From Patescibacteria group bacterium (GTDB taxonomy: Bacteria; Patescibacteriota; Patescibacteriia; JAXHNJ01): DNA of 64,000 nucleotides. Position 1 is the first letter of the stretch, and every line of letters starts with the position of its first letter. The DNA lies in assembly GCA_043812155.1 (NCBI GenBank), contig JBDRMK010000017.1, positions 146,509-210,508 of the forward strand, read 5' to 3'. The notes under the pieces are model-generated. The model was not told the origin of the DNA and made no database searches. It saw only the letters and a program-made list of their open reading frames with translations. Position numbers and translations under genes: made by a program. Below, piece by piece: positions 4,027 to 59,453 of this stretch.

Positions 4027-4067
4027 TGCGAAAGTTAAAATGTGCATCCAAACTAGGCGCTTGGATT

Positions 4068-5337: not shown

Positions 5338-5593
5338 GTTGGTACCTCCTCGGTTAAAAACCTTTGGCCGCTGCGACACCATGCCGCAGCCGCCTGGAGG
5401 AAATTTTCCTTTTTCAAGGTACGTTCCTCCCCGGAAAGCTTATCTTATATAAGATCTCTAGGGAAGACTGAAAGCCAATGTTTCAGACCATCCAAATAAT
5501 GGAGTAGATACCTTGTCTTGTTAAAGTTACAAAGAACCTACCACCCTATCACAAATTTGAGAATTTGTCAATACCTGCTATAATCTATTCATT

Positions 5594-15516: not shown

Positions 15517-16284
15517 ATGAAAAAAATTTTAAGTGTCATTATCACGATCTTTGTCTCAGTTCTTATCGCCTCGGGAGTAGTCTATGCCGCCACGCGCAAC
15601 ATTACGGCCACCTTAGGCGGCGCTTCCGGCGACACTTTCCAGCTTTCCGGCGTTATGACGGTTAATTCCTTAAAAGTCGGGGCCCAAGGCACGGGCGGAG
15701 TCACTTTTTTCAACGGCTCGATCGTGAACAACACGACAACGGCAGGCTTAGACAATCCGGTCACTTTCGGCGACAACGTGAGAATTGACGGCCGTATTTA
15801 CCGCGGAGCAATCGCGGGGACAAGCGATACTCTGCCGGTAATCATTAACGATAATCTGGAAGTGGCCGGCGCCATTTCTGCCAGCAGCTTAACTGTTAAC
15901 GGAGTTTCTGTCGGCACGAAAAAAACCTATGAAGGCACTATCGATCTTACGAGCAGCGGCGATGAAATCGTCAGTATAGATACAGGCAATACTTGTTCAC
16001 CGGACACCAATACCAAATATTACAAATATCATTATAAAAAAATAGCCATCCCGGAAATTTCGGTCAGCAACCTCCCTAACCTCCGCGCCTACTGCCACGC
16101 CCACGCCGACAGCGGAATGGCCACAATGCTTCCTAATAGCCGAGACGTTTGGGTCGGCTGCAGTTTATATTACGCCGAAGGTTATGGTTATTTACTCTAC
16201 AAATACGAAAGCGAAACCTGCGCCGGCAGCGTCTCCTCGACTTACTATTACCTCGACGGACAATATAAAATTATTATTTATTAA
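15517..16284 (+). CDS. Thr/Asn-rich secreted surface protein, paralog B
   Basis: Same N-terminal domain as 14395, different C-terminal half. RBS AAGGAGG. Confidence 0.7.
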   Translation: MKKILSVIITIFVSVLIASGVVYAATRNITATLGGASGDTFQLSGVMTVNSLKVGAQGTGGVTFFNGSIVNNTTTAGLDNPVTFGDNVRIDGRIYRGAIAGTSDTLPVIINDNLEVAGAISASSLTVNGVSVGTKKTYEGTIDLTSSGDEIVSIDTGNTCSPDTNTKYYKYHYKKIAIPEISVSNLPNLRAYCHAHADSGMATMLPNSRDVWVGCSLYYAEGYGYLLYKYESETCAGSVSSTYYYLDGQYKIIIY

Positions 16285-31340: not shown

Positions 31341-32093
31341 TTAAATCTTTCTTTCTTTGCCGACGATAATGTTCAGCCGTTTCGGGACAATTTCCACGCT
31401 CGCCGGGGTTTTGACCACGGTCTGACCGTCAAGCAAAAGCGGGACGCATTCGGTATCGCATTTTATTTTCGCTTTTTTTATGGTAAAAACGCTGTCTTTT
31501 TTATAGCTTTTTTTAAAGATATTCCAACCCGAATTTTGATTAACGACCACCGCTTCCAATAGTCCGTCGCCGGGGTTAAAAAAGGCGCCTTCTTCCAGCC
31601 GCCCTAAATTGCAGATCCGCAAAAGAGAAGACGGGGTAACGGTCTTAAAATTATAATGATCGTCACATTCAATCACCACGTTATTTTTCGTCACCTCCAA
31701 AGAAAAAAGGAAGTATTTTTCATTGGCTTTCCCTAAATCAAATTTCTTGATCATTCTTTTGGATAGAACGTCGCAAGCCGCCACCCCGTTGGGAATGCCT
31801 AAAAGCCGGGCAATCGACTGTTTTTGCCCCAAAGGAATATAGCCCAAGATTATCTTGCGGAAAGGGGCCACGTAGCTTATTACCTTGCCTAAGGTCATGT
31901 CATCACCCATTACTACGAGCGTTTCCGCTCCTTTTTTTATGCCGTCTTCCACGATCTCCTTAAGATTCTTCAAAATAGTCAGTTTATCCACCCGGCCGTT
32001 TATTCCTAACGCTAAAATTCTCGCTTCAATCTGCGAAATTTCATTTTCGTATCTTTTATCCGATAAAAAAGAATCGTAAATGTAGTGGTACAT
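31341..32093 (-). CDS. DAGK_cat-family lipid kinase (YegS/DgkA-like)
   Basis: VVMGDDMTLGKV resembles the GGDGT nucleotide-binding loop of diacylglycerol-kinase catalytic domains. Confidence 0.5.
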   Translation of the reverse strand: MYHYIYDSFLSDKRYENEISQIEARILALGINGRVDKLTILKNLKEIVEDGIKKGAETLVVMGDDMTLGKVISYVAPFRKIILGYIPLGQKQSIARLLGIPNGVAACDVLSKRMIKKFDLGKANEKYFLFSLEVTKNNVVIECDDHYNFKTVTPSSLLRICNLGRLEEGAFFNPGDGLLEAVVVNQNSGWNIFKKSYKKDSVFTIKKAKIKCDTECVPLLLDGQTVVKTPASVEIVPKRLNIIVGKERKI

Positions 32094-33349: not shown

Positions 33350-36300
33350 TTAAGGAATGGATAATTGCCAGCCGATTTGGATGACGCCGGGATTTGAGGA
33401 TAAAGTCGGATAAACGAATTTATTCGCCTCAATAATCTTAGTATAATCGCGTCCGTTCCCGTAGAATCTTTCCGCGAGCTTCCACAAGGAATCGCCGGCC
33501 GCCACCGTGTATTTTACTTTACCGATAAATTGAAATACTGTTTCAGAAAATACATCAGCCGCCGAAGTTTTGGTAAAATTTAAGGCATTGGAAATCCTAG
33601 AGGATTTGCCGTTCAAATCAAAGGCGCGGACGGTAATTTCGTAACTTCCCTGGCCCAAACCGGAAACCGGCAGAGAATAAGCGAAAGAAGGCGTTTCATT
33701 AAGAGCGTTATTTACTACGGCGAATTCGTCCACGTATTGGCCGTCAACATAAACCTTGATCAAAGAATCATTGCGCGCCACGCCGCGGATGATCACTTCG
33801 GGATTGGTTCCGTCCTTGAAAATCGGCTCAAAAAGCGTGGGCGTGATATAAGGCAAAGCCACGGTAAAATAAATTTTTGGCGATCGATCCGAATAAACTC
33901 CGTCCGCATTGCGGGCGATCGTATATACGCTATGCACCCCGTTGGATAAATTCCTTCTTATTTTATAGAAAAATGAGCCGGTATCGGAAGGATGATCAGT
34001 GGAAAGAACCGTTTTTTCCAGATCATTATCAATAAAAATAAAAATAGTGTTATTAGAACGGGCCAGGCCGGTGATCGTCGGGCTTGAGGTGTCGATCGTA
34101 CTGTCGGCCTCTGGAAAAACAATGGTCGGCGAAGCCAAATAGGCCGACTCAGCCGCCAAAATAAATGTTTTGTCCGTTTCAAAAGCCGCCGTGTTGCCCG
34201 TGCTGAAAACTTTATAATGATAAGTCGTGCTGGCGGTCAATCCAGTAATCGTTATTTCATGAAGAGTGGTCAGGGTCGCACTGCTTGCCTCGCTTCCGTA
34301 ATCCGTGGTCAAGCCGTAAAGAACCCGGGAATCCGCCGCGTGATTGGTCGTCCAGGAGATTTTTACTGAAGTCGAAGAAAGCTGAGTCGCCGCCACGTTG
34401 CTGATGACCGTCCGGTCGCTGGTCACGATCGCTTCGGTTGTTGAATATTCGCTTTCAACGCCGTCCCCGTTTTTCGCTTTTACTTGAAAACTATAGGTAG
34501 TTTCCGGAGACAAACCGGTAATCGTTATGCCGCTGCTTCCCCAGACTGCTTGCGTCTGCCAGACCGCGGCCGGACCCAAAGAACCATCGGCTTGAACGTA
34601 ATTTCCCGTGCCAGCTTCATAAATCGCAAAAGATGTCGCCGCCGGATTATCATTATTATTGATCGATAGAGTCACGGTCGTCGCCGTAGAAACCAGGGTC
34701 GGTGTCCCCGGCACGTTGGCCAAAGTGTAGACCGAAGCAGAGGTCCCGTAGGAACTGGTGTTGCCCTGACTGTCGGTAAACCTGACATCGTAAGTATATT
34801 GAGTGTTGGGATTTAAAGAAGAATCGGTCTTTGTGCTTGTGCTGTTTGAGACGGCGGTTAAAGCGGTTGTGCCGTCCCTTCTTACCTGCCAGGTAGAAAG
34901 ACCGGACCCGTTTTCCGTCACGCTTGAAGGTTTGTTTAAGACAATGGAACTTGAAGTAAGGGTGCCGAAAGTGGGAGCGCCGACGCTTGAGGGAGCTTTA
35001 TTATCCACTCCAAAAGCCGAGGAAGTAGCCCAGGCGCTGGCGTTATCCGTACCGTCATTAGGCCTCACTTGCAAGTAAACGCTTGAATCCTCGGTATCGG
35101 CTAAATCCGTGGCGCTATCCCAAGCAAAAACATGGTCTTCACCCGGACTGGCTGAAGCAGTTAAGCCGGTTAAACCATCTCCTCCGGCAGTCATGGTCGC
35201 GTCTGTCCAGGAAGAACCGTCAACGGAATATTCAAGGCCTGAAGAAGCACCCTGAGAAATATTTGAAGTATCGCTGTCATAATCAACCAGATTGTAATTG
35301 ACCGAAATATCTCCTGACTGCCAGGTGGAAAAATCATCGTCAAAAGTGGCCTCAGGGTAATTATTCAAAGTCAGGGAAAGATTATCCAAAGAGACTTCTT
35401 GAGTGCCGTCGGAATGGAAAAAGGCCCGAATCAGAAGTTGGCCAGAGCCGGCCGGAAAAGTCGAGACATTCGTATCGATGTCAGAAGCTGTATTGGCTTG
35501 GCTGTAAGTGCCGTCGGAAGCGATCCAACCACCGCTGTAATATGACCAGGTGGAACCGTCATTATTGCTTAAAATGTATTTGATCTCGCCTCCATTTTTG
35601 GTGGCCGTTTCGGAAAAAGCGGATAACGTATCAAATGTGACGGCCGTACTATTAGTGATGACGGGGTCGTCGGCAGGATAAATCGTTTCCTCACTACCGG
35701 CGCTAGCTGTCTCTCCTAAACTTTTCCAAGCTTTATAATCATCCCATTCTGCTTCAGCATCGTCCCAAGTGTGAACTGTGGGATAAGCCCTATTAGCACA
35801 ATTAGATAGACTTTCGGTTGCTTGCTGAATAGCCTGAGTGCCATCAAGATAGCCCGTAATTTGTAACCAGCCAGGATCATCGCCACAGGTTGGTCGCCAA
35901 GTAGATTGTACATCTAATAATTGTGTATAACGAGTATCAACATTTTGACTAACAGTAATTGTTTCTCCAGTCCATGGTCCTTCGCCCATACCTGAATATA
36001 AAGTTACAATATTGGTGCTAGGTTGAGAACCCCACCACCAAACACCAATATCATTATCACCTTCATTTACATTATCATATATTCCGACGCTCATTAAATC
36101 AGTAGTGGCACTAGTACGCTTGCCCATTACTTCTAAATAGTAGTCATGGGCAGAGATATCCATAGTAGCGGTTTGATCAGCAATTAAACAATTAATGTTT
36201 GTTGGCCCAACGCCGGTTTTTTTTAATTTTCCATCAGCGACTGAAATTCTACTGGCACAATCGGCTCCAATCACTGTCCAGCTTGGATCAGAAGAAAAAT

Positions 36301-36880
36301 CTTCGTAATATTCGTAAACATTAGAATAATTTTCTGGCGGACTGGTAGCACTATCGTTATCATAATACAAATAATAACCACTATCTGATTCGGTAGCGGA
36401 AATAGCTGCCTGGGCTTTAAAACGCACCGTATTTAAACTCGGAGTAACGGCTAAATCTTGCGCCAGATAATCCCGGTCAATCTCGGTATTGGCTGACCCG
36501 TTCCAATAGACGATTCTTAAGTCATACTGATTCGCCTGCATTTTTAAGGCCGCCACCAAAGAAGCGATATCGGCATTAAGCGTCAGGGTGTCATCCGTCG
36601 TAATGGCCGTCGAACCGGCCGTTACCGTGATTTTTTTCCGATAGGCGTAGTCCGTATCCCACCAGGCCGGAGAACGCCCCAAGACCGCCTGGCCGCCGGT
36701 CACCTGAATTTTTGTGTCGTCATAAGTATAATTGCCGGCCGTGGTAAAGGGGATATTCTGAGTGGCGGCCAAAACTTTAGACGGTAAAGGGATATAATTG
36801 AAATTCAGAACAAAAACAAGAGCAAAGATTAATAATGCCTGTAAAACTTTTTGCCATTTTTTTGTTTTCTTGGTCGCCAT
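33350..36880 (-). CDS. giant cell-surface protein: signal peptide, FN3/Ig-like domains, conserved Big-like C-terminal module, C-terminal LysM
   Basis: 1176 aa. FN3-like segment (SVKISWTTNHAADSRVLYGLTTDYG...TYHYKVFSTGN). The last 50 aa are LysM-like (VAAGDSLWKLAERFYGNGRDYTKIIEANKFVYP...GWQLSIP). Confidence 0.75.
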   Translation of the reverse strand: MATKKTKKWQKVLQALLIFALVFVLNFNYIPLPSKVLAATQNIPFTTAGNYTYDDTKIQVTGGQAVLGRSPAWWDTDYAYRKKITVTAGSTAITTDDTLTLNADIASLVAALKMQANQYDLRIVYWNGSANTEIDRDYLAQDLAVTPSLNTVRFKAQAAISATESDSGYYLYYDNDSATSPPENYSNVYEYYEDFSSDPSWTVIGADCASRISVADGKLKKTGVGPTNINCLIADQTATMDISAHDYYLEVMGKRTSATTDLMSVGIYDNVNEGDNDIGVWWWGSQPSTNIVTLYSGMGEGPWTGETITVSQNVDTRYTQLLDVQSTWRPTCGDDPGWLQITGYLDGTQAIQQATESLSNCANRAYPTVHTWDDAEAEWDDYKAWKSLGETASAGSEETIYPADDPVITNSTAVTFDTLSAFSETATKNGGEIKYILSNNDGSTWSYYSGGWIASDGTYSQANTASDIDTNVSTFPAGSGQLLIRAFFHSDGTQEVSLDNLSLTLNNYPEATFDDDFSTWQSGDISVNYNLVDYDSDTSNISQGASSGLEYSVDGSSWTDATMTAGGDGLTGLTASASPGEDHVFAWDSATDLADTEDSSVYLQVRPNDGTDNASAWATSSAFGVDNKAPSSVGAPTFGTLTSSSIVLNKPSSVTENGSGLSTWQVRRDGTTALTAVSNSTSTKTDSSLNPNTQYTYDVRFTDSQGNTSSYGTSASVYTLANVPGTPTLVSTATTVTLSINNNDNPAATSFAIYEAGTGNYVQADGSLGPAAVWQTQAVWGSSGITITGLSPETTYSFQVKAKNGDGVESEYSTTEAIVTSDRTVISNVAATQLSSTSVKISWTTNHAADSRVLYGLTTDYGSEASSATLTTLHEITITGLTASTTYHYKVFSTGNTAAFETDKTFILAAESAYLASPTIVFPEADSTIDTSSPTITGLARSNNTIFIFIDNDLEKTVLSTDHPSDTGSFFYKIRRNLSNGVHSVYTIARNADGVYSDRSPKIYFTVALPYITPTLFEPIFKDGTNPEVIIRGVARNDSLIKVYVDGQYVDEFAVVNNALNETPSFAYSLPVSGLGQGSYEITVRAFDLNGKSSRISNALNFTKTSAADVFSETVFQFIGKVKYTVAAGDSLWKLAERFYGNGRDYTKIIEANKFVYPTLSSNPGVIQIGWQLSIP

Positions 36881-36897
36881 TATTTTTGTATCTCTGA

Positions 36898-39126
36898 TTA
36901 GAATATTTTGACGTAATAACCTGTTTTGTAAAATTGAAAAGAATTAGAAATAAGAGAAGCCTTGCCGGAAAAATCAAAAGCTTGAGCCCGTACCTGATGC
37001 TGACCGGTACTTAAATTATTTAAGGGAATTTTATAGGAAAAATAGACCGTGTCGAGATTTTTATCGATTACCGGAAACTGAATGTAGGTCTTGCCGTCTA
37101 AATATATTTTTATCAATGAATTATTGTGGCAGACCCCCCTAATAATTAAACCGGGGCTTCCCCGATAATCAGCGACTGGCGGAAAAAGTGTCGGGCCGAT
37201 ATACGGTAATTCCACGGTAAAATATATTTTCGGCGAACGTTCGGAAAAAACTCCGTCGGCATTGCGGGCGATCGTGTAAACACTGTGCTGACCGGGCGAT
37301 AAATTCCGCCTTAATTTATAGAAAAAGGAGCCGGTGCCGGAAGAATGATTAGTGGAAAGAACCGCGTTTTCCAAATCGCTGTCAATAAAAATAAAAATTG
37401 TGTTATTGGAGCGGGCCAAGCCGATGATCGTCGGTTTTGTCACGTTCATAGTTATTTCATTTTGCGGATAAAGAACCGTTGGCGAGGCTAAATAGGGCAA
37501 ATCTTCTATTTCTTCTATTGTTTCTGCTGGCAGGGAACAAGAGCGGGATATCGCGGGTCTGTCAGCCGTTGTTCCGCAATTATTAGCATCCGTGCAAACG
37601 CGGGTCTCAAGACTACTGGCACAAGTTGACCAATCGGCACAGGACCAACTTTCAACACAGGGGCAAACACCTCCTTCGTCAATACTACCATCACAATCAT
37701 TATCTATACTGTCGCATATCTCGGTGGCTCCGGGATGAACAGCGCTGTTCGAATCATCACAATCAACTCCGGTATGGGCGCAGGTGCCTAAACTTGAAGC
37801 GCCATAGCCGTCGCTGTCCGCATCCGTGCAAGCGGAACACCAGTAGCTTTCGTCCGCTTCGCCGGAACAATTATTATCCAGGCCGTCGGCGCAGACTTCC
37901 GCCGCCCCAGGATTGATACTTGAGCTTTCAACGCGGCAGGATAAATCGCTTAATTTTGAAAGGGTAAAAGTGCCGTCTTCCTGCCAATTTACTCTTTTCA
38001 CCCGTAAAGCCCGCAAGTGGTCCGTGGCGTCCCCGGAATATTCATTGGAAATACTTTCTGTCATGAACCAAGTATCATCGTATGGCTTTACTACCTCAAT
38101 AGCGTTAACCCCAGCGTCAGGGATAGACCCTTGATAAACCCAATTAGCGCTGCCGCTGTCATCGGCCGTCAAATTTTCCGAGGTAGCGTATTGCACCATG
38201 GCCGGCGGCTCGGTATCCGACCAGTCGGTAAAAGTCAGATAATAATTACCATTATATTCCATGGCAAACGGATTTTCCGCCTGACCGCCCTTAGTGGCAT
38301 TAATATATCCTGCGCCGGTCCAATCAACTAAATTATCCGAATATGCCACATCAACAACGGCTTGGCCTCCCGGTTTGTATTTCGCGGTAGCGAACATCAC
38401 CCAACGGCTGTTTGTTTCATCTCTGATAACCATCGGGTCCCGGCATTGCTCATCAAAACTTGTGCCATCACCCCAGGTCGTCCAAGCGTTATCGCATTCG
38501 TAGATGCAGCCGTCTTGGACTACGCCGGAACATTTGCCGGTGGTCGGGTAAAGAGTCCAAGTATTGAGATCCGTGGAAGTGGCCAGGCCGATGCGTTCCG
38601 TCCAGGGATTGGTTCCCGACTGAACGCCGGTAAAAAACATATAATACGTGCTGCCGCTTTTGACAATATGCGGCGCCCAGATCGATGCGTAATAAGTGCC
38701 GGCCTGTCGGGCCAAAGCCGTACCGACATAAGCAAGGTTCTTAAAATCAGTCGTGGTAAAATGAGCGATATCGCTATATATCGAAGATCTGTTCCACATG
38801 TGGAAAAATAGGTGCCAGACGCCGCTGTCATCCTGGATCCAGGCATGATCCGCGATATCGTTTGTGCCGTCCGGATCGCCGTACGAGGCCAGAAAAGCCG
38901 GCGCCGCCGTCTCATCGCAACTTTCATTATTCTTATAGGCGGAATAAAGAGTGTCCATACAGTCATTTCCGCCTGATCCTTCGCTGGCGTAGCCGTCGCT
39001 ATCCAGATCTGTTGAACCGTAAACTCTCGCCCACCAAAAAAATCCCGTGGCCAAAATCAGACACAGAGAAATAATAAGAAATTGTTTATGTTTTATTTTT
39101 GTTTTTAACAAACTTTTTATCCTCAA
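36898..39126 (-). CDS. surface protein: five-bladed beta-propeller glycoside-hydrolase-like domain (GH43/GH32-like) + Cys/Asp-rich metal-binding repeats + conserved Big-like C-terminal module
   Basis: WHLFFHMW, SIWAPHIV...YYMFFTG and DPMVIRDE motifs. DCDDSNSAVHPGATEICDSIDNDCDG repeats. C-terminal module about 75% identical to the neighbours. No LysM. Confidence 0.65.
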   Translation of the reverse strand: MRIKSLLKTKIKHKQFLIISLCLILATGFFWWARVYGSTDLDSDGYASEGSGGNDCMDTLYSAYKNNESCDETAAPAFLASYGDPDGTNDIADHAWIQDDSGVWHLFFHMWNRSSIYSDIAHFTTTDFKNLAYVGTALARQAGTYYASIWAPHIVKSGSTYYMFFTGVQSGTNPWTERIGLATSTDLNTWTLYPTTGKCSGVVQDGCIYECDNAWTTWGDGTSFDEQCRDPMVIRDETNSRWVMFATAKYKPGGQAVVDVAYSDNLVDWTGAGYINATKGGQAENPFAMEYNGNYYLTFTDWSDTEPPAMVQYATSENLTADDSGSANWVYQGSIPDAGVNAIEVVKPYDDTWFMTESISNEYSGDATDHLRALRVKRVNWQEDGTFTLSKLSDLSCRVESSSINPGAAEVCADGLDNNCSGEADESYWCSACTDADSDGYGASSLGTCAHTGVDCDDSNSAVHPGATEICDSIDNDCDGSIDEGGVCPCVESWSCADWSTCASSLETRVCTDANNCGTTADRPAISRSCSLPAETIEEIEDLPYLASPTVLYPQNEITMNVTKPTIIGLARSNNTIFIFIDSDLENAVLSTNHSSGTGSFFYKLRRNLSPGQHSVYTIARNADGVFSERSPKIYFTVELPYIGPTLFPPVADYRGSPGLIIRGVCHNNSLIKIYLDGKTYIQFPVIDKNLDTVYFSYKIPLNNLSTGQHQVRAQAFDFSGKASLISNSFQFYKTGYYVKIF

Positions 39127-39128
39127 AC

Positions 39129-42100
39129 TTAAGGAATAATCAATTGCCAGCCGATTTGAATAACGCCAGGATTAGTGGACAAAGTCGGATAAACGGATTT
39201 ATTCGCTTCAATAATCTTGGTGTAATCGCTTCCCTTGCCGTAGAATCTTTCGGCAATCTTCCATAATGAATCGCCGGCGACCGCTTGGTATCTGACGCCC
39301 GAAGCAAACTGATAAACAGTCGGCAAAGACTCGACCGCTGATTTTTCCTGGATGAAATCCACGGCGTTGGAAATTCTTGAGGCCTCGCCCGATGAACTGA
39401 AAGCCTGGGTCGTAACGCTGTGGCTGCCTTCCTGCAAATCGGAAAGCGGCAAAGTGTAGGCAAAAGAAGCGGTATTGTTACTGACGCTGTTGGTGACATT
39501 AAACTCGCCGACATATTCACCGTCCACGTAAACCTTGATCAAAGAATCATTGTAAGCGACACCGCGAATGATGACTGTCGGGTTATCACCATCAGTGAAA
39601 ATGGGTTTTAAAAGCGTCGGGGTGATGTAAGGTAAGTCCACGGTGAAGGTGATTTTCGGCGAACGCTCGGAATAAACGCCGGCCGTGTTTCTGGCAATGG
39701 TATAAACGGTATGAGTCCCCTTGTTTAAATTACTCTTTAACTTATAAGCGAAAGAGCCAGTGCCGGAAGTATGGTTAGTGCTTAAAACCGTTCCGATCAT
39801 ATCGCTGTCAATAAAAATAAAGATGGTATTATTTGAGCGAGCCAAGCCGGTGATCGTCGGTAAAACCGTATCAACCGTTGAATTATCCGTAGGATAAATC
39901 AAAGTCGGTGAAGCCAGATAAACTTCCTCCTCCGATTCTTCAGCTGCTTCCTCGTTGGTTGCGAAAGTCGCGTCCGCGTCAAAAGTGGTGGTGTTGCCCG
40001 TGCTTAAAACTTCATAATGATAAGTGCTGCCGGCGGTCAATCCAGTGATAGTGATGGAGTGGCTGACGGTTAAATTACTGTCGTATATTTCACTACCGTA
40101 AGCGGTGGTCAAACCGTATCTGACTTTGGAATCGGCGGCGTGATTGGTTGTCCAGGTCACCTTGACCGAAGTCGTGCTTAGGGCTTCTGACTGGACGTTG
40201 GTAATAACTGTGGGCTCTAAAGTTGAAGTGGCAAAACTCTGGCTGGAATAAACGGATTCGTTGTTTGCCCGGTCTTTGGCCACTGGCTTGACATAATAAG
40301 TCTGGCCGGCGGAAAGGCCGGTTAAAGTCGCGGAATGCGTCGTGGTTAAATTGGAATCTTCGGTCGTGGTATTGCCCAGACTGTCAGTCAGGCCCCAGGC
40401 AACCTGCGTTTTTGTCGCTTCATCTGTTTGCCAAGTCACCACGGCGGTAAAAGTGGTGGTATCAATATCAAAATTAGAAACCGTGGCCGGAATCGTATCC
40501 TTTAAAACATAGAAACCGTCATTCAAAACTTCCCTGTAATTGCCGGCTGTGTCATAAACCCGGAAAGAAACATAATTTGTCCCTTGCTGTAAACCGCTAA
40601 AATTCACGGCCCAGGGCGTGGTATAAGAAGTTGCGTCATCCGTATAAATATTGGTCCAGCTAAGAATATCGCTTCCGCCCTGACTGGTGCCGATGGCATA
40701 CTGGGCGTAATCCAAAGGCGCGCCGCCGTTGGAAAGGAAAGATACCGGATAAGTCGTGCCGGCTGTATTGCGCCAGGTATCATCTCCGGTCTGATTATTT
40801 ACGACTTCCGGTGAAGTCACGTCTACTTTATAGGGCCCTAGATCCAAAGTCGCGCCGGCATCAGCGGCAACATCATCGCCGTTATAGGCCTTAACATGCA
40901 AATACCAACTCCCCTCGCTGGTCGCGGTTAATTCTTTGGTGTCTGAAGACCATTGGGTTTCTGTGTCGTTAAAGACGTATGTTTCATTTTGGTTCCAGAC
41001 ATAACGATAGTATTGGACTCCGCCGGCCCCAAAGCCGGCTTCATTGGTGAATGTAAAATTTAAATCATTTGTCCAAGCACTTTCTGTCCCATCTGAAGTA
41101 ACATCAGCGGCAGCCGCTAAAGTATATTTAGCTTCGCCGGCAATGGCGCCGTTTTCTTCACTATCGCCATTTCTGGTTTTGGCGTCAAAAGTATATTCGG
41201 TGTTGGCGACTAATCCGCTTTTCTCCCAGGTATTGGTCTGCAGCCAGCCGGAGTTGGTGGCCGTGGCGCTTTCAGTAAAATATATCCCAGAAGTACCGGA
41301 AGCTAGATTGGAAATTAACCCTTTACTAGAAACAGTAATAGCATTTTTGCCTACTGAATCAAATGATAAACCAGTTGGAGATTCAATGGAAGTATAAACA
41401 CTCCGATTATCAGTATTATCCGTGTTACAGGAATTTTGCGCCTGAAGATACCGGGTATATTGTGTGTTAGCGGATAAAGAATTTTCCTGCCAAGAAACAG
41501 TGTTAGCCGCCAAATCGCCGGATTTATTATTATTACCCGTATCCATTACCCGATAGTTAGCTTCATCAGAAATATCTTCCCAACTCCAGGTGATTGAACT
41601 TTCAGTCTGGCTAGAATGTCCAAGATAACTTCCTTCAGGTGACACTGGCATACTAACTAAAGGATTAACCGTAATAGTTTTTGTTAAAGAATCATAATAA
41701 TCTTCCGAAGGAAAAGGGACAACAACTCTGAATTTGATGGTTTGAGTACCGGCTGAGTTCCCATACACCGTCTTACTCCAAGTTGCTGTTTCAGGACTAG
41801 ATGAGCCATAATACGTGCCTGATGAAACCTTAATAGGCGTTGAAGTTGTCATCGCACTGCCGTTTACTAAACCAAGATACTCGGTTGAAGTAGTACAAGT
41901 CGTTCCCGGTGCACTGTCTCTAAAATATCCGGAAAAAGTAAATGAGGCACCTTTGCAAATCGTCTGATCTGAAGCCGGTGCCGTGACAGTAACGGTATAT
42001 GGTTCCGTACAAGTAATTGCCGCTTGCACAGTCGATATTTTAAAGTTAAATATAAAAAATGATGTAGCCAAGCCAATGAAAGTCAAAAACACCGTGAAAA

Positions 42101-42362
42101 AGCTCAAGGCGTATTTTTTGTAGGTTAAATACCGGGAATAAGAAACAATAAATTCGCCTTTTTCATCCCGGCCGGCTAAACTGGAAAAACTGTCATAAGG
42201 GAGATTTTTCAGGAAATGGGGCAAATAAGCCAGACTGAATAGGATTTCCTGAAAAATGACTGGCAAACACTTAAGACAGCGCTTTATCCCTTTTGGTGTT
42301 TCATTAAAGCACTTTAACCGCTTTTTATGGGCATTGTAAGTTTTTATTAGCAAATTATCCAT
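39129..42362 (-). CDS. giant cell-surface protein: N-terminal TM anchor, multiple FN3/Ig-like domains, conserved Big-like module, C-terminal LysM
   Basis: 1077 aa. FN3 segment and the C-terminal 250 aa are paralogous to 33350..36880. The LysM tails are about 85% identical at nucleotide level. Confidence 0.75.
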   Translation of the reverse strand: MDNLLIKTYNAHKKRLKCFNETPKGIKRCLKCLPVIFQEILFSLAYLPHFLKNLPYDSFSSLAGRDEKGEFIVSYSRYLTYKKYALSFFTVFLTFIGLATSFFIFNFKISTVQAAITCTEPYTVTVTAPASDQTICKGASFTFSGYFRDSAPGTTCTTSTEYLGLVNGSAMTTSTPIKVSSGTYYGSSSPETATWSKTVYGNSAGTQTIKFRVVVPFPSEDYYDSLTKTITVNPLVSMPVSPEGSYLGHSSQTESSITWSWEDISDEANYRVMDTGNNNKSGDLAANTVSWQENSLSANTQYTRYLQAQNSCNTDNTDNRSVYTSIESPTGLSFDSVGKNAITVSSKGLISNLASGTSGIYFTESATATNSGWLQTNTWEKSGLVANTEYTFDAKTRNGDSEENGAIAGEAKYTLAAAADVTSDGTESAWTNDLNFTFTNEAGFGAGGVQYYRYVWNQNETYVFNDTETQWSSDTKELTATSEGSWYLHVKAYNGDDVAADAGATLDLGPYKVDVTSPEVVNNQTGDDTWRNTAGTTYPVSFLSNGGAPLDYAQYAIGTSQGGSDILSWTNIYTDDATSYTTPWAVNFSGLQQGTNYVSFRVYDTAGNYREVLNDGFYVLKDTIPATVSNFDIDTTTFTAVVTWQTDEATKTQVAWGLTDSLGNTTTEDSNLTTTHSATLTGLSAGQTYYVKPVAKDRANNESVYSSQSFATSTLEPTVITNVQSEALSTTSVKVTWTTNHAADSKVRYGLTTAYGSEIYDSNLTVSHSITITGLTAGSTYHYEVLSTGNTTTFDADATFATNEEAAEESEEEVYLASPTLIYPTDNSTVDTVLPTITGLARSNNTIFIFIDSDMIGTVLSTNHTSGTGSFAYKLKSNLNKGTHTVYTIARNTAGVYSERSPKITFTVDLPYITPTLLKPIFTDGDNPTVIIRGVAYNDSLIKVYVDGEYVGEFNVTNSVSNNTASFAYTLPLSDLQEGSHSVTTQAFSSSGEASRISNAVDFIQEKSAVESLPTVYQFASGVRYQAVAGDSLWKIAERFYGKGSDYTKIIEANKSVYPTLSTNPGVIQIGWQLIIP

Positions 42363-53372: not shown

Positions 53373-55346
53373 ATGAATGTGGGCATTTATTCCCTTATCC
53401 TAGGCTTAGTCGGCTTTATCACGGCGATTCTCATCTATTTTTCCTTGAAAAAAAATCCAGTGGGCACGGATCTGATGAAAGAAATCGCAGATAAAATACA
53501 TCACGGAGCCATGGTTTTTTTAAAAAAAGAATACGCCATAATTTCCATTTTTGTCTTGGTTGTTTTCGCCTTGCTCGCCTGGAAAATAAACATCTGGACC
53601 GGTGTCGCCTATATCTCAGGAGGTTTATTCTCGATGTTAGCCGGTTTTTTCGGCATGTCCGGCGCGACTCTGGCTAATGTGCGGACGGCTAACGCCGCTC
53701 ATACGTCAGGGCAAGCCAAGGCTTTGAATATTTCTTTTTTAGGCGGCTCTGTTATGGGTTTATCCGTGGCTTCCTTGGGTCTGATCGGCCTGGGCATTTT
53801 TTATTATTTTTTCCGCGAAGTTGATCCCGCCGTTCTTTCCGGTTTCGCCATGGGCGCTTCTTCTATCGCGCTCTTCGCCCGGGTCGGCGGCGGTATTTAC
53901 ACAAAATCGGCGGATGTCGGCGCGGATCTGGTCGGCAAAGTGGAGGCGGGCATTCCGGAAGACGATCCGAGAAACCCGGCTGTCATCGCGGATAATGTCG
54001 GAGATAATGTCGGCGACGTGGCCGGCATGGGCGCTGATCTTTTTGAATCATACGTCGGATCGGTCATCGCCGCCTTGGCCATCGCCGCGACCGGAACAGC
54101 CTACGCCGCTCATAAAATCGCCTACATGTCCCTGCCTTTATGGATCATCACGGCCGGCTTGATCGCCTCAATTTTAGGCGTTTTTTCCGTAAAAATATTC
54201 TCAAAATTAAATCCGCAAGCGGTCCTGCGTTACGTCACTTACGTCGCGGCCGGTTTGCTTTTAATCGCCACTTATTTTATTGTCAAAAAACTTGAGCTGC
54301 CTTTAGGAGTTTTTTGGACCGTGGTGCTCGGAACTTTTGTCGGCATTCTTATCGGTTTGCTGACGGAATATTATACTTCCTCTAAGCCCGTCATTAAAAT
54401 CGCTAAATCCGCTCAAACCGGCGCCGCCACCAATATTATTACCGGGCTGGCGGTGGCCATGGAAAGCACGGCTCTGCCTGTTTTGATCATCGCGATCGCT
54501 ATTCTCTTTTCCTATAAACTGGCCGGGCTTTACGGCATTGCCATCTCCGCCGTCGGCATGCTGTCTACCATCGGCGTCACTATGTCCGTGGACGCCTACG
54601 GTCCGATTGCCGACAACGCCGGCGGAATTTCAGAAATGTCGGGCTTAGGCAAGGAAACCCGGGAAATCACCGATCGCCTTGATTCGCTCGGCAACACCAC
54701 GGCCGCCATCGGCAAGGGATTTGCCATCGGCTCAGCCGCCTTGACCGCCCTGGCTTTGTTCGCCGCTTATACCACGGCCGTAAAATTGAACAGCATTGAT
54801 CTGACCAAGGCCGAAGTAGTGACCGGTCTTTTGATCGGCGGCATCCTGCCTTTTTTAATTGCTTCTTTTACCATGACGGCTGTCGGCCGCACCGCTATGA
54901 AAATGGTCAATGAGGTCAGAAGGCAATTCAAAGAGATCGCCGGACTGATGGAAGGCAAGGCCAAATCTGATTCCAATAAATGCATCGCGATCGCCGTCCA
55001 TGGATCGATCAGAGAAATGATCATCCCCGGGCTATTGGCTATTATCGCGCCTATTATAGTCGGCCTGATTTTAGGCAAAGAAGCCTTGGGCGGACTATTG
55101 GCCGGCGCCACTTTGGTCGGAGTTTTCCTGGCCCTGATGATGTCTAACGGCGGCGGCGCCTGGGATAACGCCAAAAAATACATTGAAAAGGGTAATTTAG
55201 GCGGCAAGGGTTCTGATACCCACAAAGCGGCCGTGGTCGGTGATACCGTCGGCGATCCGTTTAAAGACACGGCCGGACCGTCGATGAATATTCTGATCAA
55301 ACTGATGGCCGTGGTTTCTTTAGTCCTCGCCCCCCTCTTCCTGTAA
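53373..55346 (+). CDS. hppA: membrane-bound proton/sodium-translocating pyrophosphatase
   Basis: [28 protein letters not shown] and 16-TM topology. An Ala in the GNTTAA motif suggests the K+-dependent subclass. Confidence 0.9.
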
Positions 55347-55385: not shown

Positions 55386-56009
55386 TTGGCCTACACTTTC
55401 TTTAAATTCAATATCATCCCTCTATTCCGCCTCAAAATCAAACGGATAGAAGGTTTAGAGAATATCCCCCGGCAGGGTAACTACATTCTAGCCGCCAATC
55501 ATAACGCTTGGATTGATTCACCTTATATTTGGGCAGTTTTGACAAAAGTGATCAACGAAAAAATATACGCGGTGGCGGCCACGAAAAAGTTCAGATGGAT
55601 GGGCGCCATTCCTATCGATCCTAAGAACAAAGCGAAAACTGTTGATCTATTCGTCGATTTGCTGAAAAAAGGGAAGATTGTCGCCATTTTTCCGGAAGGA
55701 AATTCCAATCCAAACAAAATTCTGCGCGAACCGAAAACCGGGGTGGCCCGGCTCGCTTTGCGTTCAAAGCTTCCCGTCATTCCCATAGGCATAAAAGGTA
55801 CAAAAGGAAGAACTTTTATTCCCGGCCTTTTGCGCTTTTTTTTCACCCCCGCCAGGCCAACGATTACAGTCGGCCGGCCGATGACTTTTCCTGAATTCTA
55901 CGGTCAAACGGAAAATGAATACCTTCTACATAAAGTTTCACGCTTAATCATGCAAGAAATCTCCAAACTTTGCGGGAAAAAAATGCCCCCGGAGGATATA
56001 AGTCTATGA
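55386..56009 (+). CDS. plsC: 1-acyl-sn-glycerol-3-phosphate acyltransferase-like (LPLAT/PlsC family), paralog 1
   Basis: HxxxxD (NHNAWID) and FPEGN motifs. Confidence 0.7.
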   Translation: MAYTFFKFNIIPLFRLKIKRIEGLENIPRQGNYILAANHNAWIDSPYIWAVLTKVINEKIYAVAATKKFRWMGAIPIDPKNKAKTVDLFVDLLKKGKIVAIFPEGNSNPNKILREPKTGVARLALRSKLPVIPIGIKGTKGRTFIPGLLRFFFTPARPTITVGRPMTFPEFYGQTENEYLLHKVSRLIMQEISKLCGKKMPPEDISL

Positions 56010-56641
56010 ACTATCCCTGGTTTATAAAACTCGCTATTTGGTTTTTAAAAAGAAACTTAGAAAAAGTGGCAGGCCTGGAAAATCTTCCTGCAAACAGCAA
56101 TTTTATCTTAGCGGCGAACCACGGCAGTTATCTGGACGCAGTTTTTCTTTGGGTCGGCCTGGTGCCGGTGACGAAAAAAATAATCTATTCCCTGGCCAAA
56201 GAGCAGTTAAAAAGCAAATTTGGCTCTTTCGGCTCAAAATATCTCGGCATGATCTATATCGACACGAAGGATAAGGCCAAATGCCTGGAAGTGGCCGCCG
56301 AATACTTGAAAAGAAATGAAATTATCTGCGTTCTACCGGAAGGCCGCCGGAATTACGATCCGATCAATCTATTGCCGGGCAAAACCGGCGCCGCCCGACT
56401 GGCCTTAAAAGCGAAAGTGCCGGTCATCCCGGTCGGCATAATAAGCCCGAAAGGGCAAGGTGTCTTTCAGGCGATAAAAAACGCTTTTTGGCCGAAAAAC
56501 AAAGCGAAAATAATCATTGGTCGGCCTCTCAATTTTGAAAAATATTTTTACCAGGAGATGACTAAAGAATCATTGGAAAAAATAACCCGCGAAACCATGC
56601 TGAAAATCGGCGAACTCTGCGGGAAAAAATATACTTATTAA
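56006..56641 (+). CDS. LPLAT/PlsC-family acyltransferase, paralog 2
   Basis: NHGSYLD and LPEGRR motifs. ATGA start/stop overlap with paralog 1. Confidence 0.7.
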   Translation: MNYPWFIKLAIWFLKRNLEKVAGLENLPANSNFILAANHGSYLDAVFLWVGLVPVTKKIIYSLAKEQLKSKFGSFGSKYLGMIYIDTKDKAKCLEVAAEYLKRNEIICVLPEGRRNYDPINLLPGKTGAARLALKAKVPVIPVGIISPKGQGVFQAIKNAFWPKNKAKIIIGRPLNFEKYFYQEMTKESLEKITRETMLKIGELCGKKYTY

Positions 56642-56644
56642 ATT

Positions 56645-57256
56645 ATGCGCTATTCTACCACCAAAATAATTCTCAAGCCTCTTTTTCGCCCTAAATTCAA
56701 GGAGATCAACGGCCTTTCCAACCTGCCCCAAAACGGCTCGTTTATATTGGCCGCCAACCATATTGATTATTTGGACGGCTATTTCATTTCCTTTGGCCTA
56801 GAGATCAGGAAAAAACTGGATATATATTTCCTTTCAAAAACCAAAAATTACTGGTGGGCCGGCTCCACCTTGCCGATTGACCCTCAAGACCGGGAAAAAA
56901 GCCTCCGCCAGGCGGTCAATTATCTGCAGCAAGGGAAAATCATCTGCAATTTCATTGAAGGAAAGAGAAATCCGGAAAAATACCTGCTTGAAGGCAGGAC
57001 CGGCACGGCCAGAATGGCTTTAAAGGCCCGGGTTCCCGTTATTCCGGTCGGCATTACTTGCCCGATCAACCGGACTTTTCCTGGAGCCTTAGCCAGTTTG
57101 CTTACCCATAACCATCAGGCTATAATAAACATCGGTCAGCCGATCAGCTTTGAAAAATATTACGGCCAAGATATAACAAAACCGCTGCTTATTGAATTAA
57201 CCCGGGAAGTGATGAAAAAAATCTCGCCTCTTTGCGGCAAAGCCTATTCATTTTAA
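56645..57256 (+). CDS. LPLAT/PlsC-family acyltransferase, paralog 3
   Basis: NHIDYLD and FIEGKRN motifs. Confidence 0.7.
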   Translation: MRYSTTKIILKPLFRPKFKEINGLSNLPQNGSFILAANHIDYLDGYFISFGLEIRKKLDIYFLSKTKNYWWAGSTLPIDPQDREKSLRQAVNYLQQGKIICNFIEGKRNPEKYLLEGRTGTARMALKARVPVIPVGITCPINRTFPGALASLLTHNHQAIINIGQPISFEKYYGQDITKPLLIELTREVMKKISPLCGKAYSF

Positions 57257-57278
57257 ATAATTAACCATAATAAACCAT

Positions 57279-58742
57279 ATGAAACTTTACGAATCATGGG
57301 AAAAAATTTCCCGGTTGTCAAAAGAAGAAATAAAAAAAATGCAGGACAAAAAAGTGGCCTATTTTGTCCAGCATCAGCTGCCTTTTTCGCCCTATTACCG
57401 TGAGCTTTTCGCCAAAAACAACCTTAAATTTTCGGACATCAAATCAACTGATGACCTGCAAAAAATCCCCTTGTCCTCAAAAGAAGATCTGGCTCCGACC
57501 AAAGAAGACCCGGGCAAGCCCCGCACTTTTATGCTGCAGCCGGACGAGCATCTGATAAAAAAATACGCGGGCAAAGGAGAACTTCTGAAGATCCTTATGA
57601 AAAAAGTAAAAGGCCAGGACGTAAAAAGAGAGCTGGAATGGCAGTATAAGCCGATCCACCTTCATTTTACCACCGGCCGTTCCGCCGCTCCCACGCCTTT
57701 CGGTTATTCCGCCCGGGACCTGGAAATATTGAAAGAAACCGGAGAAAGAATGCTCTCCGTCATTAAAGTCTCCCGAGATGAAGTCGCCATTAACGCTTTT
57801 CCTTTTTCGCCACATTTGGCTTTTTGGCTGGCTTACTACGCTTTAACCAAGCTCGGCATGACCACTTTGCACACCGGCGGCGGCAAAGTGATGGGCACCC
57901 AGAAAATCATTGATGCCATTGAAAAAATGAAAGCCTCTCTGATCGTCTATATCCCCGGCTACGGCTACCATATGTTAAGGCAGGCGGCCGAGCAAAAAAG
58001 AAATTTATCCAATGTTAAATACATCATTACCGGCGGGGAAAGGATCGGCCAGGGCTTGCGCGATAAGACCCGGGAGATCCTGGAGCAGATGGGCGCCAAA
58101 ATGCCGCAGATCTACGCCACCTACGCCATGACGGAAAGCAAGACCGCCTGGATCCAATGCGCCGAATCCACCGGCTATCACACTTACCCGGATCTGGAAT
58201 TTTTTGAAGTGGTAGATAAAGAAGGCAACCGGGTCAAAGAAGGCGAATCGGGTGAGATTGCCATTACCCTGCTTGGCTGGCGCGGTTCAATCGTCTGCCG
58301 CTATAGAACAGGAGATATGGTTAAGGGGATAAATTACGATCCCTGCCCGCATTGCGGCCTGACCGTTCCCCAGATCTTCCCCGACATTCAGCGCTCCTCG
58401 GACATGAAAGAATTTCATTTAACCAAAGTGAAGGGCGAATTAATCAATCTGAATAATATTTATCCTCTGCTTTCCGGACTTAAAGAAATTGAGGAATGGC
58501 AGGTGGAGATCCGGAAAAAAGACAACGACCCGTTTGAAGTGGATGAGATGGTTTTGTATGTCGCCCCGAAAAAAGAGATTGACTGGCCGGTTTTTGAGAA
58601 AAAACTCAAATCAAAATTTGCTTACGAGGTGGGCGTAACCCCGCAGGTTTCAAAAGAACCGGTCTCAAAAATCCTTCACCGCGTCGGCATGGACACTGAG
58701 CTCAAAGAAAAAAGGATCGTAGACATACGGCCGAAAGATTAA
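57279..58742 (+). CDS. adenylate-forming enzyme, phenylacetate-CoA ligase / coenzyme F390 synthetase family (PaaK-like)
   Basis: N-terminal region typical of PaaK-like ligases (...SPYYRELF...LQKIPLSSKEDL), AMP-binding core (TGGEKIGQ, YATYAMTE). Confidence 0.65.
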   Translation: MKLYESWEKISRLSKEEIKKMQDKKVAYFVQHQLPFSPYYRELFAKNNLKFSDIKSTDDLQKIPLSSKEDLAPTKEDPGKPRTFMLQPDEHLIKKYAGKGELLKILMKKVKGQDVKRELEWQYKPIHLHFTTGRSAAPTPFGYSARDLEILKETGERMLSVIKVSRDEVAINAFPFSPHLAFWLAYYALTKLGMTTLHTGGGKVMGTQKIIDAIEKMKASLIVYIPGYGYHMLRQAAEQKRNLSNVKYIITGGERIGQGLRDKTREILEQMGAKMPQIYATYAMTESKTAWIQCAESTGYHTYPDLEFFEVVDKEGNRVKEGESGEIAITLLGWRGSIVCRYRTGDMVKGINYDPCPHCGLTVPQIFPDIQRSSDMKEFHLTKVKGELINLNNIYPLLSGLKEIEEWQVEIRKKDNDPFEVDEMVLYVAPKKEIDWPVFEKKLKSKFAYEVGVTPQVSKEPVSKILHRVGMDTELKEKRIVDIRPKD

Positions 58743-58764
58743 ATTATTTAATTATTTCTCATAT

Positions 58765-58929
58765 AGAGCGGGTCCCTCTTCGAGCCTGAGCCTCAGAGCC
58801 GAAGGCCAGACCCGCTCTTGTTTTTCAACAAAAAACGTGCCTGGCTTCAAACAAAGATTTAATTTAATTACGAGAAGGGCGGATTCTCCTAGAGCCTGAG
58901 CAGAGTCGAAGGCAGAATCCGCCCTATTC
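58765..58929. repeat. two long-form REP/MITE-like hairpin elements
   Basis: 58765-58816 and 58868-58929, with TIRs AGAGCGGGTC/GACCCGCTCT and AGGGCGGATTC/GAATCCGCCCT around a GAGCCTGAGC...GTCGAAGG core. 58765-58816 is inverse-homologous to 8177-8233. Confidence 0.7.
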
Positions 58930-58998
58930 AAATAAAAAAAACAGGGAAGCGCGTGAAACGCTCCCCTTTTTGATTAGCGCACGGTGTACCCGCGCTTA

Positions 58999-59238
58999 TT
59001 ATAATGAACCGCCTTCGATCTTCAAACCGCCCTCGCGCTTGATAATCATAACCGAAGTGCCATCCGCGGCGCACATGACAACCGAATTATCTTCCAGGCC
59101 TTTCTTAAACTTAAGGCCGCTTCCAAAAAGGGCGACAACCAGCTTCTGCCGCCGCTTCTCATCATCCCGGCTTTCATCCGGCTCTTCCAGGTCAAGTATT
59201 TCCAGAATATCCTTAAGGCCGATAAATTTACCTGTCAT
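58999..59238 (-). CDS. small hypothetical protein (79 aa), GC-rich cassette gene 2
   Basis: Strong RBS AGGAGG 5 nt upstream of the ATG. About 52% GC. Confidence 0.45.
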   Translation of the reverse strand: MTGKFIGLKDILEILDLEEPDESRDDEKRRQKLVVALFGSGLKFKKGLEDNSVVMCAADGTSVMIIKREGGLKIEGGSL

Positions 59239-59267
59239 GATGAACCTCCTTATCTTTTCTACTGGAC

Positions 59268-59453
59268 TTATTCTTCGGAACATTCCTCCTGAAGAGCTAT
59301 CAAAGCATCCCTGCGCAGAGCTTGCCACAAATCATCTTCGGTCAGACCGTGTTCCTTCAACCCCCTTCTGAGCTCTGCGATAGACATCCTCTTGTCCTTT
59401 TTTCTTTTGGCTCTGTAACTTGACCTGCCAAATTTCCCGTCTTTCTTTTTCAT
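59268..59453 (-). CDS. small basic helical protein (61 aa), GC-rich cassette gene 1
   Basis: RBS AGGAGG. Lys/Arg-rich N-terminus, then an amphipathic helix. The overlapping 73-aa alternative frame is not supported. Confidence 0.4.
   Translation of the reverse strand: MKKKDGKFGRSSYRAKRKKDKRMSIAELRRGLKEHGLTEDDLWQALRRDALIALQEECSEE

Follow-up and report, generated by a model that had tools for sequence, protein, structure and literature searches.

In Escherichia coli, Aas, which acts together with LplT, pairs an LPLAT-type acyltransferase with an adenylate-forming fatty-acid activator for the re-acylation of lysophospholipids. A split version of Aas exists in the obligate host-dependent bacterium Chlamydia trachomatis, in which two adjacent genes, CT775 for a lysophospholipid acyltransferase and CT776 for the acyl-carrier-protein (acyl-ACP) synthetase AasC, bring host fatty acids into membrane phospholipid (PMC5693948). 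In candidate phyla radiation (CPR) genomes, PlsC and PlsY are present, whereas PlsX, ACP-dependent enzymes and fatty-acid synthesis were not found; the membranes are fatty-acid based and lysolipid-rich, and the source of the activated acyl groups was left unexplained (10.1101/465690). Here we analyze a 64,000-nucleotide stretch of a Patescibacteria group bacterium (contig JBDRMK010000017.1, positions 146,509 to 210,508; referred to as the window), in which three acyltransferase genes and a PaaK-fold adenylate-forming enzyme (referred to as the ligase) form a compact block. On balance, we consider it probable that this operon serves membrane-lipid salvage, with a fatty acid:CoA (coenzyme A) ligase feeding three peripheral acyltransferases as a split analogue of E. 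coli Aas. The single domains are ordinary, and it is their association that points to a candidate for acyl activation in Patescibacteria.

The features of the block and its immediate surroundings are as follows.

53373-55346, plus strand: membrane H+-pyrophosphatase (H+-PPase; PF03030, 875 bits)
55386-56009, plus strand: acyltransferase copy 1 (AT1), 207 aa; its TTG start is the sole possible start
56006-56641, plus strand: acyltransferase copy 2 (AT2), 211 aa; an ATG start was taken inside a longer TTG open reading frame (ORF)
56645-57256, plus strand: acyltransferase copy 3 (AT3), 203 aa
57279-58742, plus strand: PaaK-fold adenylate-forming enzyme, 487 aa; proposed fatty acid:CoA ligase
58765-58818, plus strand: GC-rich hairpin followed by UUGUUUUUC, a probable intrinsic terminator (inverted repeat I4)

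An earlier sequence-only reading of this DNA had placed three tandem acyltransferases and a PaaK-like enzyme at 55386-58742. The ORFs agree with it, and the domain matches exceed their cutoffs, with 81.1, 86.1 and 69.3 bits for PF01553 (Acyltransferase) in AT1, AT2 and AT3 (cutoff 23) and 47 bits for PF00501 (AMP-binding) in the ligase (cutoff 29.9). The stop of AT1 overlaps the start of AT2 in an ATGA at 56006-56009, as had been noted; of the 3-nt gaps described along with it, only the one between AT2 and AT3 exists, and AT3 and the ligase are 22 nt apart. The H+-PPase ends 39 nt ahead of AT1. Just past the ligase stop, a hairpin with a U-tract lies in a region (58740-58960) whose RNA fold reaches -70.9 kcal/mol (z = -4.8), and this hairpin probably ends the operon. 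Scanning for sigma-70 and terminator consensus gave, inside the block, matches only near shuffle expectation, and Rfam and tRNA scans found nothing in the block or close by. The overlapping genes, the gaps of 3-22 nt and a terminator solely after the ligase thus indicate co-transcription.

We notice a second GC-rich hairpin at 58876-58925, which is related to that at 58765-58818. Each is about 50 nt long, and the two stand in tandem with starts approximately 107-110 nt apart. They have in common a GAGCCTGAGC...CGAAGGC core, a motif that occurs nowhere else in the window. Both lie in the interval that separates the ligase stop from the genes that follow, and together they may represent a small repeated element.

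The ligase had been labeled as a member of the PaaK/F390-synthetase family, which is correct at the level of fold and superfamily alone, as all family scores are far below their cutoffs. Among the NCBIfam models, FlxY gives 180 bits (cutoff 520), haloarchaeal PaaK 116 (700), PaaK TIGR02155 85.7 (646.3) and F390 synthetase 64 (459). The FadD-type models PRK06187 and staphylococcal FadD score 36.7 and 29.2 bits, respectively (cutoffs 476 and 650). The closest solved relative by sequence is BT_0428 (E=1e-22), with which ligase residues 7-72 align. An AlphaFold (AF2) model of the ligase, built from 39 sequences, has a predicted local distance difference test (pLDDT) score of 91.4, and a Foldseek search with this model returned as best matches BT_0428 and PaaK1/2 (4rvo and 2y27), along with 2-hydroxyisobutyryl-CoA ligase, at template modeling scores of 0.76/0.87 and 20-22% identity.

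The motifs of the ligase comprise a P-loop (residues 130-140), a pocket loop (174-183), TYAMTES (281-287), YRTGD (342-346), RSSDM (372-376) and an invariant lysine, K476. The P-loop reads TTGRSAAPT, an A3 variant, in place of the PaaK/ANL consensus SSGTTGKPT. Following the second core strand, FPFSPHLAFW stands where PaaK has the glycine-rich GYGLFTGG, and P175, P178, H179 and F182 of this pocket loop are invariant across the ligase family. Meanwhile, a 37-residue lysine-rich helical insert relative to PaaK is located at residues 73-125, with pLDDT >90. Judged by sequence, the ligase is a member of a discrete PaaK-fold family and is not a true phenylacetate-CoA ligase.

Two other identities were considered for the ligase. 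The first, a true PaaK, is ruled out by the TIGR02155 score, the replaced pocket loop and the absence of a paa context, with no paa genes in any related locus fetched. The second, an aryl-polyene or flexirubin enzyme, was suggested by the FlxY match and rejected for a score far below the cutoff and for the lack of ketosynthase, ACP and dehydratase genes at any locus.

The family is compact, comprising only 134 clusters (50% identity) at E<1e-30 in a set of 1.8 billion representatives. Its P-loop and pocket-loop signatures extend through the Patescibacteria proteins and relatives at 37-49% identity, and farther matches revert to the ordinary PaaK P-loop. More than 2,800 homologues of the ligase are present in the database. 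The best 120 of them are 57-96% identical, and their named sources are Patescibacteria, Parcubacteria or unclassified 'bacterium' throughout. Public annotations of the clade are generic, either 'AMP-binding protein', as for MFH1367063.1, which is identical to our ligase, or 'phenylacetate-CoA ligase'. We regard this as a newly defined, previously unnamed PaaK-fold clade, probably acting on fatty acids.

Orthologues outside Patescibacteria provide the main clue to the substrate. Full-length orthologues at 37-46% identity occur in many metagenome-assembled genomes (MAGs) of Omnitrophota, in MAGs labeled 'Planctomycetales' and in a single MAG of Syntrophales. Of the 59 loci with such orthologues, 40 have a thiolase and/or a FadB/FadJ-type fusion next to the ligase. 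The commonest order is the ligase, a thiolase (PF00108/PF02803) within approximately 20 nt and a 730-aa FadB/FadJ-type enoyl-CoA hydratase/3-hydroxyacyl-CoA dehydrogenase fusion. A 615-aa acyl-CoA dehydrogenase with an ACAD9/VLCAD C-terminal domain follows a few genes on in at least 15 of these loci, and an ADP-forming acetyl-CoA synthetase is present in four. Read from gene content, the Omnitrophota-type set forms a beta-oxidation operon in which the ligase takes the place of FadD, a context that requires CoA thioesters of aliphatic acids. The signatures FTTGR[TS]xLPT and FP[YF][AS]PHLAFW, K476 and the helical insert are common to the acyltransferase-linked and the beta-oxidation-linked ligases. 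In three further loci (L077, L080, L086), the ligase is accompanied by a glycerol kinase and a lipase-like alpha/beta hydrolase (Hydrolase_4). Apart from the soda-lake loci described below, the recurring neighbors are fatty-acid or glycerolipid genes, and none is aromatic-catabolic. Of the 'acyl or aryl acids' named in the sequence-only reading, the evidence favors aliphatic (fatty) acids as the substrate of the ligase and disfavors aryl acids.

The relatives from soda lakes and other metagenomes (L059-L074, L087; e.g. L067:1669-8018) carry ligases that are 47-52% identical and arranged as two tandem paralogues. A sodium:solute symporter lies ahead of them, and a histidine kinase/response regulator pair comes after them in most cases. 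This is a different, transport-linked setting for the same ligase family.

The beta-oxidation context also bears on the acyl acceptor. In a CoA-independent route, the ligase would be a fatty acyl-AMP ligase or a loader of an acyl carrier, and its acyl group would pass straight to the acyltransferases, or to a carrier protein not yet recognised, in the manner of the Aas synthetase domain with ACP. In Aas, the nearest analogue by function, acyl groups are channeled and acyl-CoA is not released. Further, the unusual P-loop and the conserved lysine-rich helical insert offer a possible docking or membrane surface, and CPR are reported without ACP-dependent enzymes and with patchy cofactor biosynthesis (10.1101/465690). 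However, orthologues bearing the same signatures are found in beta-oxidation operons, where the thiolase, FadB and acyl-CoA dehydrogenase all depend on CoA thioesters, and the PaaK-fold relatives with structures include the true CoA ligases PaaK and HCL. With E. coli AcpP as the query, an ACP-like ORF was found at E<10 neither in the window nor in the 111 related loci taken from public collections (L001-L111), which is a weak negative, since it covers these stretches and not whole genomes. We consider this route quite unlikely, and keep CoA as the presumed acceptor.

The three acyltransferase copies of the window are 37-41% identical to one another. Block I (HX4D) is intact in all of them, as HNAWID in AT1, HGSYLD in AT2 and HIDYLD in AT3, and block IV (VPVIP) is found in every copy. 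Block III reads FPEGNS, LPEGRR and FIEGKR, respectively, with an invariant E-G; the PEG motif ascribed to all three by the sequence-only reading is therefore present in AT1 and AT2 and replaced by IEG in AT3. The same IEG is kept in the AT3 orthologues of L005, L006 and L007, and active E. coli PlsB has VEG at this position, so the IEG of AT3, as far as sequence can tell, is no sign of inactivation. Among 43 copies from related loci, HX4D is kept in 41 (the exceptions being one D-to-E change and one N-terminally truncated copy), and E-G and VPVIP are kept in essentially all. Loss of motifs, by which the copies could have proved inactive, is thus not what we found.

To place block II, the window copies were aligned with the genuine E. 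coli aas, plsC and plsB genes. The block reads IPIDP/IDPK in AT1, IYIDT/IDTK in AT2 and LPIDP/IDPQ in AT3, compared with IDRN (LIDR) in E. coli PlsC, IRRT (FIRR) in E. coli PlsB and LDRK in T. maritima PlsC. The arginine of this block, thought to bind the acceptor phosphate, is missing from all three copies. AT1 has its best NCBIfam match in the Aas-type model PRK08633 (72.9 bits); its residues 1-144 correspond to positions 1-145 of PRK08043, and residues 2-152 of AT3 to positions 2-151.

The 'PlsC-family' label holds for the superfamily and fails below it. TIGR00530 scores 53.4, 76.0 and 49.6 bits in AT1, AT2 and AT3 (cutoff 102.95), and PRK15018 scores 22-31 bits (cutoff 501); on these scores the copies are members of the LPLAT/AGPAT superfamily and not demonstrable PlsC orthologues. 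AT2 is the most PlsC-like copy and also the most widely retained. It is identical to MFH1367061.1, annotated 'lysophospholipid acyltransferase family protein', and its AF2 model (pLDDT 93.3) matches T. maritima PlsC 5kym best in Foldseek (E=1.3e-9), with human GPAT1, squash GPAT, PatA and LpxM among the further top matches. Only about 19 residues precede the core; in 5kym the alignment begins at residue 65, and in E. coli PlsC at residue 45. No transmembrane segment is predicted in any copy, the highest Kyte-Doolittle 19-residue (KD19) values being 1.0-1.5 and none reaching 1.6. The copies are strongly basic, with 29-34 K+R against 15-17 D+E.

Two AT2 homologues (P0302 and P0309, approximately 37% identity) are named from MAGs of Candidatus Woesearchaeota (DPANN archaea). 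This reflects either mis-binning or the presence of an acyltransferase of bacterial type in a further lineage of ultra-small symbionts.

A bootstrapped neighbor-joining (NJ) tree of the acyltransferases placed the three window copies in one group in only 1 of 100 replicates. The copy 2 core clade is supported in 99/100, and a copy 3 clade including L003, L035 and L043, which reaches genomes with approximately 60% identical ligases, in 68/100. Because the window copies never group reliably and the copy clades span genomes, the paralogues are, on this tree, old and did not arise by a recent local expansion, and repeated losses of copies have occurred.

The conservation of the block was scored by six-frame ORFs, phmmer and an acyltransferase hidden Markov model in 26 loci of species-representative genomes and 80 metagenome loci. 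Among the 25 loci whose ligase reaches 600 bits or more (56% identity or higher), 24 have one to three acyltransferases directly upstream of it, and the sole exception, L044, is a 2.3-kb contig. The usual order in Patescibacteria is NusA, H+-PPase, two or three acyltransferases, ligase and trigger factor. Three copies are present in the window, L003/L004, L005, L006, L032, L034, L035, L045, L046 and L047, two in L001/L002/L008/L037, L007, L036, L039, L040 and L043, and one in L033, L038, L042 and L051. The pair is kept where the flanks differ, namely in L032 (no H+-PPase), L047 (neither NusA nor H+-PPase within range) and L064. Since the block recurs in every Patescibacteria relative examined with enough flanking sequence, the arrangement is not chance.

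The genes that join the block also belong to lipid metabolism. In six Patescibacteria loci (L032, L033, L036, L039, L047, L051), a CarS-like/CTP_transf_1 cytidylyltransferase of the CDP-archaeol or CDP-diacylglycerol (CDP-DAG) synthase family abuts it, encoded by genes of 179-184 aa (e.g. L036:9446-9985, L033:6723-7265); no CarS-like homologue was found in the window. The order in L064 is acyltransferase, ligase, acyltransferase and a DAGK_cat/YegS lipid kinase. Our findings support the idea, put forward in the sequence-only reading, of a module dedicated to activating scavenged acids and to glycerolipid acylation: the adjacency is conserved among ligases 56-64% identical, it persists under broken synteny, and the orthologues lie in lipid operons.

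We also observed, at 31341-32093 (minus strand) of the window, a 250-aa protein with a PF00781 diacylglycerol-kinase catalytic domain (39.5 bits), a further candidate lipid-salvage enzyme.

On the basis of these observations, we propose the following sequence of events. The ligase would adenylate a free fatty acid with ATP, releasing pyrophosphate (PPi), and the acyl group would then most likely be moved to CoA to give acyl-CoA. The three acyltransferases, small and basic, would act at the cytoplasmic membrane face and transfer acyl groups to glycerolipid acceptors, which could be lysolipids, or lysophosphatidic acid (LPA)/glycerol-3-phosphate (G3P). For AT1 and AT3, re-acylation of lysophospholipids is most likely, because both resemble E. 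coli Aas in the P-[IL]-D-P of block II and in the short N-terminus, features that favor lysolipids as the acceptor. AT2 may form phosphatidic acid, as it is the most PlsC-like copy; the CDP-DAG-synthase-like neighbor in six relatives fits this role and suggests that phosphatidic acid is also made.

The upstream H+-PPase probably removes PPi, a step that would drive activation forward while energising the membrane. By association, this enzyme is plausibly the PPi sink: most Patescibacteria-type loci have it immediately ahead of the acyltransferases, and in L055, a locus of beta-oxidation type, it lies two genes upstream of the ligase-thiolase-FadB set, with one gene between.

Two further observations concern pyrophosphate. 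A pyruvate phosphate dikinase (19086-21812, plus strand) occurs in the same 64 kb as the H+-PPase, which suggests a pyrophosphate-centered energy metabolism. In L001/L002, a second H+-PPase paralogue is located close by.

The lipid neighbors and the replaced pocket loop disfavor a non-fatty substrate, which we consider very unlikely. Here, the ligase would activate an aryl, short or hydroxy acid or an amino acid, and the acyltransferases would decorate a glycolipid or lipoteichoic anchor, an aminolipid or a pigment lipid (aryl-polyene, flexirubin). The PlsC superfamily also holds OlsA and pigment-lipid acyltransferases, the ligase finds its best NCBIfam match in the flexirubin-cluster protein FlxY, aryl or small acids are the substrates of all PaaK-fold enzymes characterised by structure, and the soda-lake relatives follow a symporter of a type typical of small carboxylates. 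Yet the FlxY score of 180 falls well short of 520, as does that of PaaK (86 versus 646), and the pocket loop GYGLFTGG is replaced by FPFSPHLAFW. Moreover, ketosynthase, ACP, dehydratase, glycosyltransferase and paa genes are absent nearby at every locus, where instead the VLCAD-type dehydrogenase, FadB/FadJ, thiolase, glycerol kinase, DAG-kinase-like and CarS/CdsA-like genes recur.

That inherited synteny alone holds the genes together, with ordinary PlsC-type acyltransferases using another acyl donor and a ligase of unrelated housekeeping or catabolic role, is highly improbable: the series RNase HII, methyltransferase, UPF0102, NusA, H+-PPase, acyltransferases, ligase and trigger factor is indeed syntenic across relatives although its genes are mostly functionally unrelated, and between the same genomes the ligase (approximately 60% identity) and the acyltransferases (approximately 37-43%) are under different constraints, but the acyltransferase-ligase pair persists under changed flanks (L032, L047, L064), is joined by extra lipid genes (CarS-like in six loci, DAG-kinase-like in L064) and shows the spacing and the single terminator of a co-transcribed unit.

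Several points weigh against the proposed fatty acid:CoA ligase and its three acyltransferases as a salvage operon. The P-loop of the ligase departs from the ANL consensus. The named relatives with solved structures (PaaK, NatL2, AjiA1, ClxA and HCL) use aryl or short branched acids, and the Omnitrophota orthologues are only 37-46% identical, so specificity could differ. As the block II arginine is missing from all three copies, the sequences assign none of them with confidence to LPA or G3P specificity. The acyltransferase tree is shallowly resolved, with 31/100 for the wide copy 1 clade. The adjacency of the H+-PPase may be inherited synteny instead of functional coupling. Gene content of the organism was judged within the 64-kb window, which is part of a contig of 212,565 bp that encodes both MFH1367061.1 and MFH1367063.1.

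CPR make up a large share of bacterial diversity. The inability to make fatty acids has its basis in the literature at the level of the phylum, and no lipid-uptake route has been identified for CPR (10.1101/465690; PMC11665869). No enzyme has been named for the acyl-activation step in Patescibacteria, and the ligase is a concrete, cloneable candidate for it, because it is approximately 60% identical across the sampled relatives, is tied to acyltransferases and has orthologues that head beta-oxidation operons. A full-text literature search returned no description of a ligase-acyltransferase module in Patescibacteria, nor of a fatty-acid role for the ligase clade.

A broader scheme, speculative and on the whole unlikely, would make the ligase the missing acyl-activating enzyme of Patescibacteria in an ACP-independent pathway. 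Together with one to three anchor-less PlsC-like paralogues, which would split sn-1, sn-2 and lysolipid acylation among themselves, and in some lineages a CarS/CdsA-like enzyme, it would replace PlsB/PlsX/PlsY, and the pathway would be the main route of membrane assembly from the fatty acids and lysolipids of the host, with PPi converted into proton-motive force by the H+-PPase.

Upstream of the block, the window contains, in order, RNase HII, a methyltransferase, UPF0102, NusA and the H+-PPase, and downstream a trigger factor and a DUF218 protein. Between the ligase and the trigger factor lie two small minus-strand ORFs, at 58999-59328 and 59268-59453. One encodes 61 aa with a K/R-rich N-terminus and the other approximately 80-109 aa, and neither has a Pfam match. 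At their position, L005, a 96%-identical relative, has called genes of 76 and 92 aa. The two ORFs could be a two-gene cassette, e.g. a toxin-antitoxin pair.

Elsewhere in the window, positions 4001-6000 have a GC content of 54.5%, compared with approximately 45% for the window, and coincide with an ORF at 4068-5417 (minus strand). Its 449-aa product, with one hydrophobic segment and a charged low-complexity middle, may be horizontally acquired. Two adjacent paralogues at 14395-15402 (335 aa) and 15517-16284 (255 aa), both on the plus strand, lie upstream of a PilT-like ATPase. Their signal-anchor N-termini are almost identical, they have a common 'TLGG..GD.F.L.G..TV..LKVG.QG.GGVTFFNGS' start, and they resemble tandem surface or pilin-like proteins. 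At 33350-42362 (minus strand), three very large ORFs in succession (1176, 742 and 1077 aa) probably encode large surface or secreted proteins typical of episymbiotic Patescibacteria.

Compared with known systems, the acyltransferases, judged from the AT2 model, have the same GPAT/PlsC alpha/beta fold as the PlsC proteins of T. maritima (5kym) and E. coli, along with HX4D, the E-G of block III and the VPVIP of block IV. In contrast, they lack the N-terminal two-helix hydrophobic anchor of T. maritima PlsC and the hydrophobic N-terminus of approximately 45 residues in E. coli PlsC, with query residue 20 corresponding to residue 65 of 5kym. They also lack the block II arginine, and TIGR00530 stays below its cutoff in all three.

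With PaaK (B. cenocepacia PaaK1/2 and B. thetaiotaomicron BT_0428), the ligase shares the two-domain ANL fold, the PaaK-type N-terminal microdomain, YRTGD, the RSxD hinge, the C-x-x-C turn and the C-terminal catalytic lysine. It differs in being only 20-22% identical, in its helical insert, P-loop and pocket loop, and in its lipid contexts without paa genes nearby.

The Chlamydia pair CT775/CT776 resembles the block in its split organization within a host-dependent bacterium. However, AasC is of FadD/Aas type and loads ACP, and Chlamydia keeps a full type II fatty-acid synthesis, whereas the present block combines a PaaK-fold ligase with three acyltransferases in a lineage reported without ACP-dependent lipid synthesis.

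E. coli Aas differs in being a fusion with a single acyltransferase part, while here the genes are separate and the acyltransferases three. The activator here belongs to a PaaK-fold clade and not to FadD/AasS (BLAST against the Aas C-domain, E=8.4), and the NCBIfam Aas equivalog cutoff is missed by far (73 versus 1221 bits). No LplT-like ORF was found at E<1e-3 with the E. coli LplT query, nor any ACP, in the 64-kb window or the related loci; E. coli DgkA and Aas C-domain queries found nothing in the Patescibacteria loci, and the window has no Aas-C-like ORF either. In addition, the block here is linked to an H+-PPase. The likeness to Aas lies in AT1 and AT3, which are collinear with it from residue 1, with a short N-terminus and the P-[IL]-D-P motif (VPLDP in Aas); AT2, with IYIDT, does not have this block II feature.

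The comparison with E. coli FadD and PlsB/PlsC concerns the chemistry. By family, the ligase is no FadD homologue (29-37 bits versus cutoffs of 476-650). The proposed reactions are nevertheless alike, namely fatty acid + ATP + CoA to acyl-CoA + AMP + PPi, followed by acyl-CoA-dependent phospholipid assembly. The Omnitrophota orthologue occupies the FadD position ahead of fadI/fadJ-like genes, and it is from this operon context that we infer the activity of the ligase.

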